From sequence record OQ658364.1: a stretch of 59,556 nt of DNA; one strand, given 5' to 3'. Under the pieces are notes generated by a model that had not been told where the DNA came from, ran no database searches, and saw nothing but the letters and a program-made list of their open reading frames with translations. The position numbers were made by a program, and so were the translations under genes. Numbering within the stretch: the stretch's first letter is position 1; each line of letters starts with the position of its first letter. Shown piece after piece: positions 7,760-8,695 of this stretch. Source of the DNA: Pseudomonas phage sp.

Positions 7760-7788
7760 TTGGCATCCAGAGTGATGGTGTGTATAAA
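7760..7788 (+). promoter_or_regulatory. putative sigma70 promoter for the attL-proximal cassette
   Basis: TTGGCA-N17-TATAAA lies about 50 nt upstream of the 7836 start. Confidence 0.4.
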
Positions 7789-7835
7789 TCGCACCTGAGC
7801 AGGATACGGTAGGCGCTTGACAGCATGGACCTGAG

Positions 7836-8249
7836 ATGACCGACCACAATTTCACCAACACTACGATCACAGAAACAGTCGTTCTCTCCGAGCCGCTGAG
7901 TGGAAACTCTATCGCTTCTATACAGGCAATTTATCCTTTTACAGAAGCTGATTATGTGAGGCTGGATAGTCAGGGCAATGTAGTGAAAAACTGGGCGACG
8001 AGCTTTTTATTTGTAGCTATTGGCTCGGCGGTCACTCTTCTCCAAAACGTCTATAAAGACGGCCTTAATACCCCGAATGATGTTGCGTCAGGGGATGTGA
8101 TAGTGTTATCAATTTTATCTCTGATTACTGCGTTATTGTTTGTTGTTAGCGCGTTTGTGCCCAATGAGAAGAAGAAATTAATGAAGCGAATAGGGAAGTT
8201 TTTCAAAGATTCGGCAAGCCAGAATCATTTTATTAGGGGCGCAAAGTGA
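7836..8249 (+). CDS. small membrane protein (2 predicted TM helices), low-GC moron gene
   Basis: 137 aa. Hydrophobic stretches ATSFLFVAIGSAVTLLQNV and VIVLSILSLITALLFVVSAFV. GC well below the prophage average. Located between attL and int. Confidence 0.55.
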   Translation: MTDHNFTNTTITETVVLSEPLSGNSIASIQAIYPFTEADYVRLDSQGNVVKNWATSFLFVAIGSAVTLLQNVYKDGLNTPNDVASGDVIVLSILSLITALLFVVSAFVPNEKKKLMKRIGKFFKDSASQNHFIRGAK

Positions 8250-8695
8250 TAACGAAAAGTAATCTTCCAAAAGGTTATATTCCTTATTCGAAGGTTAAAC
8301 TTTGCAGCAATTTGCTCAGCGGCAGCACCTTCATTCTTTCGGTGGATGAAGTTCTGCCGCTCCTAGTTGGAAAAGGAAATAAGCCTCAAATTTGGATACA
8401 GGCTATTGCTGATGCGAATATGAAGTCTTTTGTACCGATTGTAGAATCCTCCATCCCACTGTTTCCGTTTGTCCGAGTCACCACTGAGTCTGGTGTCGTC
8501 CTCGTGTTTGTTAATGATCAAGTCATTATGTCCATTCGATCTGAGGTTGATGACGAAATTAATATTTTTCAGATGGACTTAAGGCCGATTGGGCTAAATA
8601 TAGTCGGCGACGAAAAATCTCTTCGTTCCGGAGGCATGGAATTCAGCAACAGCACTTTTTCTGGGATGGGAACTTTTATGGGTTTTTCTTTGTAA
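8246..8695 (+). CDS. hypothetical cytoplasmic protein, second gene of the moron cassette
   Basis: 149 aa. GTG start overlaps the upstream stop (GTGA), with RBS aggggcgcaaa. Low GC. No recognisable motif. Confidence 0.5.
   Translation: MITKSNLPKGYIPYSKVKLCSNLLSGSTFILSVDEVLPLLVGKGNKPQIWIQAIADANMKSFVPIVESSIPLFPFVRVTTESGVVLVFVNDQVIMSIRSEVDDEINIFQMDLRPIGLNIVGDEKSLRSGGMEFSNSTFSGMGTFMGFSL

Follow-up and report, generated by a model that had tools for sequence, protein, structure and literature searches.

Positions 7,760 to 8,695 of sequence record OQ658364.1 (Pseudomonas phage sp.; 59,556 nucleotides, all of which we refer to as the window) hold two small genes, here named A and B, at the left end of a prophage. 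The prophage is ~40 kb long, resembles phage JBD68 and is integrated in ssrA, the gene for transfer-messenger RNA (tmRNA), of a Pseudomonas aeruginosa host; A and B are its first genes, ~150 nucleotides (nt) inside attL. An original prediction, made from the sequence alone, had described two translationally coupled genes with their own promoter and low GC content, lying between attL and the integrase gene int and transcribed opposite to int, and had proposed that they form a phage-defence or exclusion module. The described architecture is borne out. A begins with ATG and B with GTG, the stop codon of A and the start codon of B share 4 nt (GTGA), and a Shine-Dalgarno sequence, AGGGG, stands six nt ahead of the GTG. 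B runs convergently into int with an overlap of 20 nt, and int bounds the other side of the cargo slot. Coordinates are collected in Table 1.

The A-B cassette and its products

The N-terminal pattern MITxxNLP..Y.PY of B was kept from residue 1 in 22 homologues with identities as low as 38%. This conservation shows that the GTG start is correct, and the GenBank entry for JBD68 gp30, a protein of 127 amino acids (aa) that begins at an internal ATG, is therefore annotated too short. JBD68 is available as KY707339; in the annotation of the related phage vB_PaeS-D14B (BK061476), gene B is omitted and a 52-aa antisense open reading frame (ORF) is called instead. The GC content of the cassette was 0.425 compared to 0.622 for the remaining prophage, as low as had been claimed, and GC content at third codon positions (GC3) was 0.42-0.47 in the cassette compared to 0.76 in int. 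Ratios of nonsynonymous to synonymous substitution rates (dN/dS), determined against two diverged Pseudomonas copies, were 0.11-0.13 for A and 0.07 for B, values which indicate that both genes are under purifying selection.

The putative sigma-70-like promoter, TTGGCA-N17-TATAAA, is present one base to the left of where it had been placed. Its hexamers are invariant in Pseudomonas loci whose A and B proteins are 82-87% identical to those of the window, while the spacer and flanks vary, and this pattern makes the promoter a phylogenetic footprint beyond chance. A consensus promoter scanner made no call at 7760-7788 because its rule requires a T at position 6 of the -10 hexamer. A perfect TTGACA (7828-7833), nearly conserved among homologues and reading TTGAGA in one diverged locus, lies 3 nt ahead of the ATG of A, too near to serve this gene. 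The sequence GCTGTCAT occurs twice, in direct orientation, in the interval from the att core to the promoter, and both copies are also kept in the loci encoding 82-87% identical proteins, with variation in the neighbouring bases; these copies may be arm-type sites for the integrase or an operator for the cassette promoter. No terminator follows the cassette, as the stop codon of B lies within the 3' end of int.

Hydropathy analysis of A revealed one strongly hydrophobic segment (residues ~86-108) and one moderately hydrophobic segment (~53-73), and an AlphaFold model placed helices at residues 49-75 and 85-107, with a predicted local distance difference test (pLDDT) score of 69.6. The earlier description of A as a protein with two transmembrane (TM) segments is thus supported by both modeled helices, with the small correction that one of the segments is only moderately hydrophobic. 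The ~50 N-terminal residues are acidic and contain a conserved motif (consensus GTWQADYPLT..DFEHIKNGKP), the loop joining the helices has ~10-12 residues, and the C-terminal tail is strongly basic (NEKKKLMKRIGKFFK; family consensus PN[DE][RK]K.VMK.I..HFK.SPK). A is a predicted inner-membrane protein, and by the positive-inside rule both of its termini should be in the cytoplasm (N-in/C-in). A profile search for A returned 158 clusters, nearly all of 133-137 aa, and A matched phrog_12702, a family annotated as of unknown function, end to end in a comparison of hidden Markov models (HMMs; E = 4e-69). A sub-threshold Pfam match of its TM region to DUF4064 was disregarded.

For B, an AlphaFold2 model built from 23 sequences was all-beta, with 14 strands, a pLDDT of 93.2 and a predicted template-modeling (pTM) score of 0.87. 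No signal peptide is present, and the C-terminus is rich in Gly and Ser. B is thus a predicted cytoplasmic all-beta protein of an apparently new fold. Invariant residues are mainly Pro, Gly and Trp, together with a DLRPIG.N motif. B matched phrog_12462, likewise annotated as of unknown function, end to end by HMM (E = 2e-77), and an exhaustive profile search placed 487 clusters at 50% identity in its family, 365 of them at E <= 1e-10.

The statement that neither protein can be recognized held in every search, as no described family was matched in Pfam, NCBIfam, PADLOC, PDB or Foldseek comparisons. A and B matched no family in Pfam (E <= 1) or NCBIfam, single-sequence and profile searches of the PDB gave chance-level matches only, and a Foldseek search of the PDB and BFVD with the B model returned nothing at E <= 0.001. 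Among specific families and domains, Pfam and NCBIfam gave no helix-turn-helix, ribbon-helix-helix, AbrB or toxin domain in either protein, Pfam and PADLOC gave no TIR domain in A or B of the window, a Pfam scan at E <= 1 gave no RexA or RexB family, and A matched no holin family in Pfam. Our literature searches likewise gave no functional description of these proteins. By the Pfam, NCBIfam, PADLOC and PDB tests, A-B falls outside every described defence, toxin-antitoxin, holin and Rex family, and the pair appears to be compact defence-type mobile-element cargo, a known kind, assembled from uncharacterised parts. A bacteriocin-immunity pair, suggested by the Gly-rich C-terminus of B, was rejected, as there is no leader peptide and no export gene and the predicted beta fold is globular.

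Inheritance, mobility and the integration site

Genomes and viral contigs provided 48 distinct loci, and in 43 of these A was located directly upstream of B, with both genes on one strand. The genes overlapped by 4 nt in 21 of these pairs and by 1 nt in another 15 (36 of the 43), and A adjoined B in 44 of 52 evaluable metagenome loci. At one of the exceptional loci (L073), the partner is a diverged two-TM protein that has this basic tail as well. Distance matrices for A and B were strongly correlated (Mantel r = 0.907 for 41 pairs; 0 of 2000 permutations reached this r). This correlation and the synteny indicate that A and B are inherited together without shuffling. Hosts include Gamma-, Beta- and Alphaproteobacteria, Desulfuromonadota, Bacteroidota, Fusobacteriota and Planctomycetota, and the family is most abundant in marine gammaproteobacteria. 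Proteins identical to those of the window occur on at least 1000 (A) and at least 998 (B) assembled contigs, the named ones being from P. aeruginosa. Acinetobacter variabilis NIPH 2171 has two copies of the pair on separate scaffolds (L040 and L041); in both, the A frame is only 83 aa and lacks the N-terminal domain, and it may be truncated or have another start.

The A-B pair is almost certainly a mobile accessory unit and, judged by the genes that surround it, is carried by four kinds of mobile element. In the attP-int slot of phages JBD68, 5400, vB_Pae_U2 and vB_PaeS-D14B, the cassette DNA is 99% identical to that of the window, and its products are annotated as 'hypothetical'. Phages with 94-97% identical int genes diverge ~70 nt into the query, near the int 3' end, and carry different cargo there, as expected from the original prediction of a moron; A-B is indeed foreign cargo in the attL-int slot. 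In the vB_Pae_CF55b group, the same slot (L018 1980-2846) encodes a SocA/Panacea-antitoxin protein and a 137-aa protein that matches PADLOC NsnC, and in phage Hali (L019 1210-2536) it encodes MqsR, MqsA and a protein with a weak DUF6941 match. In both cases the cargo is on the int strand, i.e., opposite to A-B. Because sibling phages swap cargo at this position, the attP-int slot is a hotspot for cargo of the toxin-antitoxin or defence type.

Elsewhere the pair is an integron cassette. In contig L016 it lies between two canonical attC sites (3453-3508 and 4398-4460) as a single cassette, and the pairs in L010 and L011 are likewise single attC-flanked cassettes; in TARA contigs L006 and L009, an attC directly follows B. 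The array in L016 (90-9753) comprises at least 8 co-oriented attC sites, and nearly all of its cassettes encode proteins of 170-220 aa without a Pfam match. Using a relaxed pattern (the strict RYYYAAC/GTTRRRY form misses real sites), we detected an attC-like site within ~10 nt of the B stop codon in 14 of 53 metagenome loci, compared to 18 of 400 length-matched random windows (4.5%). Many metagenome contigs of ~1 kb contain the pair alone, which may reflect assembly breaks at attC repeats. In the integron cassettes only 24 nt separate attC from the start of A, a distance that leaves no room for a promoter, and these copies must thus depend on one outside. No attC was found at the window cassette, which abuts int.

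Acinetobacter phages (vB_AbaSI_1 and many IMG/VR contigs) carry the pair between head and tail genes in the orientation of the late operon. A structural role in the virion, suggested by this position, was rejected, as the pair is also present in integrons, on a plasmid and in chromosomal islets free of phage genes. The plasmid, pAP8900-3 of Acinetobacter pittii (12.6 kb, mobilizable), has an Abi-family gene and a RelE/ParE toxin gene within a few genes of the pair, and in a chromosomal islet of Vreelandella boliviensis the pair lies beside genes for DUF4145, DUF6650 and TIR_2 proteins.

At the integration site, a pattern search located a second copy of the attL core, with one mismatch, at the tmRNA 3' end (48113-48136). 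In a three-way alignment, the attP of JBD68 consisted of the sequence left of the tmRNA 3' end, the core and the sequence right of 7684, and this three-part make-up identifies 7659-7684 as attL. Position 7666 is A, compared to G at the tmRNA 3' end (48118), in JBD68 attP and in the other aligned homologous loci; it is the sole mismatch within the 24-nt pattern searched.

Table 1. Features of the cassette and of the integration site, in window coordinates.
Feature	Position	Strand	Description
attL core	7659..7684		TTGGTGGAACCGGGGGGATTTGAACC; 26-nt duplicate of the tmRNA 3' end; left end of the prophage
Two direct copies of GCTGTCAT	7724-7731 and 7735-7742	+	Direct repeat in the interval from the att core to the promoter
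Sigma-70-like promoter	7760..7788	+	TTGGCA (7760-7765), 17-nt spacer, TATAAA (7783-7788)
Gene A	7836..8249	+	ATG start; 137 aa; phrog_12702
Shine-Dalgarno sequence of gene B	8235-8239	+	AGGGG, read from the sequence; inside the 3' end of gene A
Gene B	8246..8695	+	GTG start; 149 aa; phrog_12462
int	8676..9863	-	Prophage tyrosine integrase; Pfam Arm-DNA-bind_2, Phage_int_SAM_3, Phage_integrase
tmRNA gene	48112-48464	-	Intact

The ssrA site also contains a second integrated element (3538-7571), which adjoins attL on its left, so that prophage and element form a tandem array. The tyrosine integrase of this left element is apparently split into two minus-strand frames, one with DUF6538 (7128..7571) and one with a weak Phage_integrase match (5723..7150); the element also contains a low-GC DUF3800 gene (4474..5670, phrog_12991) and a serine resolvase gene (3538..4128). 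Within the JBD68-like prophage, a second low-GC pair of small overlapping genes (97 and 119 aa; 14906-15555, minus strand) lies directly downstream of the gene for a cI-like repressor with an S24-peptidase domain (15668..16459). The 119-aa product weakly matches a CopG antitoxin, and this pair is probably a toxin-antitoxin moron in the place that rexAB occupies in lambda.

Proposed function and competing explanations

The links of B to immunity come from its distant relatives. Among the 150 best B representatives were two long fusions, P0294 (476 aa) and P0250 (446 aa). P0294 consists of a B domain, pentapeptide repeats and a TIR_2 domain that matches the PADLOC PDC-S66, SAVED-TIR and ThsB models (3e-13 to 1e-5). 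It lies in a defence island and retains an A-like partner (hhalign probability 93.7%) with a 4-nt overlap, and the locus continues with an Aga-type Cas4-like nuclease and an nSTAND NTPase. P0250 joins the B domain to TPR repeats and likewise has an A-like partner (hhalign probability 98.5%). In Pseudoalteromonas fuliginea (L051 2020-4865), a B gene without A overlaps the start of a gene for an AAA_15/AAA_21 ATPase, and the next gene encodes a protein that weakly matches HNH; this arrangement is Septu-like. B may act with a different effector at this locus, as part of a three-gene variant. Considered together, these sequences suggest that the B domain is coupled to effectors or sensors of the immune type, and that A looks like one of several possible outputs. 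The roles in the 'membrane protein plus effector' scheme of the original prediction may thus be reversed, as the fusions point to a sensor or adaptor role for B and an effector role for A. Most of what our analysis adds comes from outside the window: the co-evolution of the pair, its mobility, the swappable slot and the TIR and Septu links.

Our best explanation, which we advance tentatively, is that A-B is a mobile module for abortive infection or exclusion of phages, with B as sensor or adaptor and A as membrane effector. We infer lysogen expression, the topology of A, the A-B contact, the assignment of sensor and effector roles and the anti-phage function itself, and the following sequence of events would connect them. 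Expression in the lysogen would be possible from the cassette's own predicted sigma-70-type promoter, directed away from int. Cytoplasmic B would act as a sensor or adaptor that contacts the N- and C-terminal cytoplasmic tails of A, a putative holin-like inner-membrane effector with two helices. A phage-derived trigger would alter this contact, and A would then permeabilize or depolarize the membrane, or block a membrane-linked step of infection, such that phage production would stop and the infection would abort. Phage resistance was conferred by 18% of the tested cassettes of unknown function from V. cholerae and by about a third of the gene cassettes with no known function (gcus) from mobile integrons, small TM proteins included (10.1101/2024.07.02.601686, 10.1101/2024.07.02.601719), and these rates provide a useful prior for a defence role of A-B. 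We consider it somewhat probable, on balance, that the pair has some anti-phage or exclusion role; our confidence in the specific mechanism is well below that. A broader proposal, that A-B, which occurs in at least five phyla, is the prototype of a widespread and undescribed two-component immune system, in which a new-fold B senses infection, gates A and is also wired to a TIR NADase and a Septu-type ATPase-nuclease, seems doubtful at present.

Several observations weigh against an anti-phage function or against the roles assigned to A and B. PADLOC-DB v2.0.0 gave zero matches to A or B at E <= 1, the model of A is of low confidence, and an alignment of 22 B homologues revealed no obvious conserved set of catalytic residues, the reason why 'sensor' is a role assigned by exclusion. 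Each fusion corresponds to a single 90% cluster, seen on one metagenome contig for the TIR fusion and on two contigs for the TPR fusion, and we therefore treat both as leads rather than proof. The integron cassettes, having no promoter of their own, offer no clue to regulation. Outside mobile elements, chromosomal neighbours are mostly housekeeping genes, and by our estimate a credible defence gene lies within three genes of the pair at ~5-6 of 27 loci, a heterogeneous set that is not decisive. The one relevant set of published observations concerns JBD68, whose cassette is 98-99% identical to that of the window. In PAO1 lysogenic for JBD68, neither D3112 nor DMS3 is blocked; lysogens of JBD68 lacking P-fimU are sensitive to the F10-like phages tested, and the only residual effect, a partial one on LES2, was ascribed to a Zip homologue (PMC12952977). 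These data limit the claim without refuting it because the panel was small and consisted of temperate siphophages only. Thus, the defence or exclusion role originally proposed for the cassette has circumstantial support from the mobile unit, the TIR fusion and the Septu overlap, but the JBD68 lysogens argue against broad protection.

Alternative explanations account for parts of this evidence. That the two frames arose by chance in an AT-rich spacer and encode nothing could be argued from the low GC content, which favours long ORFs, and from the annotation of vB_PaeS-D14B without gene B. This idea is refuted by the conservation data and has essentially no chance of being right: full-length homologues with conserved length and termini occur in several phyla, dN/dS is ~0.1, the B model has a pLDDT of 93, and both proteins are established PHROG families. 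Superinfection exclusion (Sie) at the envelope is a more substantial rival. Here A, in the manner of T4 Imm, P22 SieA or HK97 gp15, would block DNA entry or a receptor or pilus step, B would serve as stabilizer or assembly factor, and no cell would die. A small membrane protein encoded beside att, in a prophage-borne cassette with its own promoter, suits such a role. To our knowledge, known Sie proteins act alone, and an obligate, co-evolving cytoplasmic partner would be unexpected for them; the periplasmic loop of A comprises just the ~10-12 residues between its helices, and the B-TIR fusion and Septu link point to intracellular signalling or effector logic. Integron cassettes speak for exclusion, in that about a third of those active in defence have TM helices and the TM cassette Deva interferes with genome injection (10.1101/2024.07.02.601686, 10.1101/2024.07.02.601719). 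The JBD68 data cut both ways, as phages of this type already bear exclusion genes that act at the surface, for P-FimU and a Zip homologue, but the pilus phages D3112 and DMS3 are not excluded by their lysogens (PMC12952977). Overall, exclusion of this kind appears quite unlikely.

We judge it similarly improbable that A-B is a toxin-antitoxin (TA) or addiction module in which A damages the membrane, B binds A as antitoxin, the carrier is stabilized and any anti-phage effect is secondary. A and B are small and translationally coupled, the same slot holds bona fide TA modules (Panacea-type and MqsRA) in sibling phages, RelE/ParE is encoded a few genes off on the Acinetobacter plasmid, and a second low-GC pair with a weak CopG-antitoxin match lies beside the repressor gene of the window prophage. 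In type II TA systems, the antitoxin gene is usually upstream, and membrane toxins usually have fewer than 60 aa and RNA antitoxins. Gene order and size are atypical by this standard, A being a 137-aa protein that includes a conserved cytoplasmic domain of 50 aa; no DNA-binding domain and no known toxin or antitoxin domain was matched in A or B, and B occurs without A beside a Septu-like operon. TA cassettes do stabilize chromosomal integrons (10.1101/2024.07.02.601686, 10.1101/2024.07.02.601719), but the A-B integron cassettes are co-oriented and, with 24 nt from attC to start, have no promoter room. A contribution to host fitness unrelated to phages, a form of lysogenic conversion useful in certain niches, often marine, and acting, for example, on tolerance of envelope stress, on the handling of ions or solutes or on the activity of a host membrane complex, would fit the mostly housekeeping chromosomal neighbours and the richness of the family in marine gammaproteobacteria. 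It would also agree with the finding that a defence role has been demonstrated for only a minority of the integron cassettes tested so far (10.1101/2024.07.02.601686, 10.1101/2024.07.02.601719) and with the absence of any reported phage phenotype of JBD68 lysogens beyond P-FimU and Zip (PMC12952977). The TIR fusion and Septu adjacency are hard to explain in this way, the pair occupies typical defence or TA slots on three element types, and neither A nor B has a transporter, enzyme or regulator signature; we regard a pure fitness role as unlikely.

If the cassette does protect its carrier as an abortive-infection or exclusion module, it would constitute a new defence module of ~0.9 kb made of two protein families without known relatives, one of them with an apparently new fold. 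Its carriage by P. aeruginosa and Acinetobacter means that it could affect the outcome of phage therapy in two pathogens of high priority. As one unit, the pair moves between att-int hotspots of prophages, morons within structural operons and integron cassettes, and thereby links three cargo systems that tend to be investigated apart from one another.

Comparison with known systems

The closest parallel in organization is lambda RexA/RexB, a two-gene prophage module in which, as in A-B, a small polytopic inner-membrane protein is combined with a cytoplasmic one; lysogen expression, a further shared trait, is predicted for A-B. By analogy, a cytoplasmic sensor would gate a membrane effector in both. 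RexB has four TM helices, RexA is a protein of ~280 aa that is not all-beta, the sensor gene comes first, and the genes lie beside cI rather than att. A and B have no homology to RexA or RexB, as judged by the Pfam scan and by the lack of a sequence or fold match in the PDB. Sucellos (SclA/SclB) is a RexAB-like two-gene cassette of the V. cholerae superintegron (Darracq et al., 10.1101/2024.07.02.601686). Compared by description only, Sucellos and A-B are both two-gene units within one integron cassette, and in Sucellos one partner is a predicted membrane pore and both genes are needed; Sucellos has its own promoter, whereas the integron A-B cassettes have no room for one. The likeness to TIR defence proteins (Thoeris ThsB-like, PDC-S66 and TIR-NLR) is confined to the C-terminal TIR_2 domain of the distant fusion P0294; B of the window shares only the N-terminal B domain with this fusion, and a ThsA-like partner is absent.

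Class II holins have two TM helices and a very basic C-terminal tail. A resembles them in its two predicted TM helices, in its highly basic tail and probably in an N-in/C-in topology, and differs in its additional conserved N-terminal domain of 50 aa and in the location of its gene outside a lysis module. Epona, in which an Mrr_cat nuclease is fused to a two-TM holin domain, is an example of a holin-type domain that serves as a defence effector in an integron cassette (10.1101/2024.07.02.601686, 10.1101/2024.07.02.601719). The Panacea/SocA genes of vB_Pae_CF55b and the MqsR/MqsA genes of Hali share with A-B the attP-int slot, where two small genes are interchangeable, but they are co-directional with int and encode recognisable domains, none of which is common to A or B. 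Cap15 (S-2TM-beta) of the cyclic-oligonucleotide-based anti-phage signalling system (CBASS) reportedly combines TM helices with a small beta-barrel that controls membrane disruption, according to work by Duncan-Lowey and colleagues from 2021. By analogy, A-B may bring together the same two elements, a two-TM anchor and a small all-beta cytoplasmic module.

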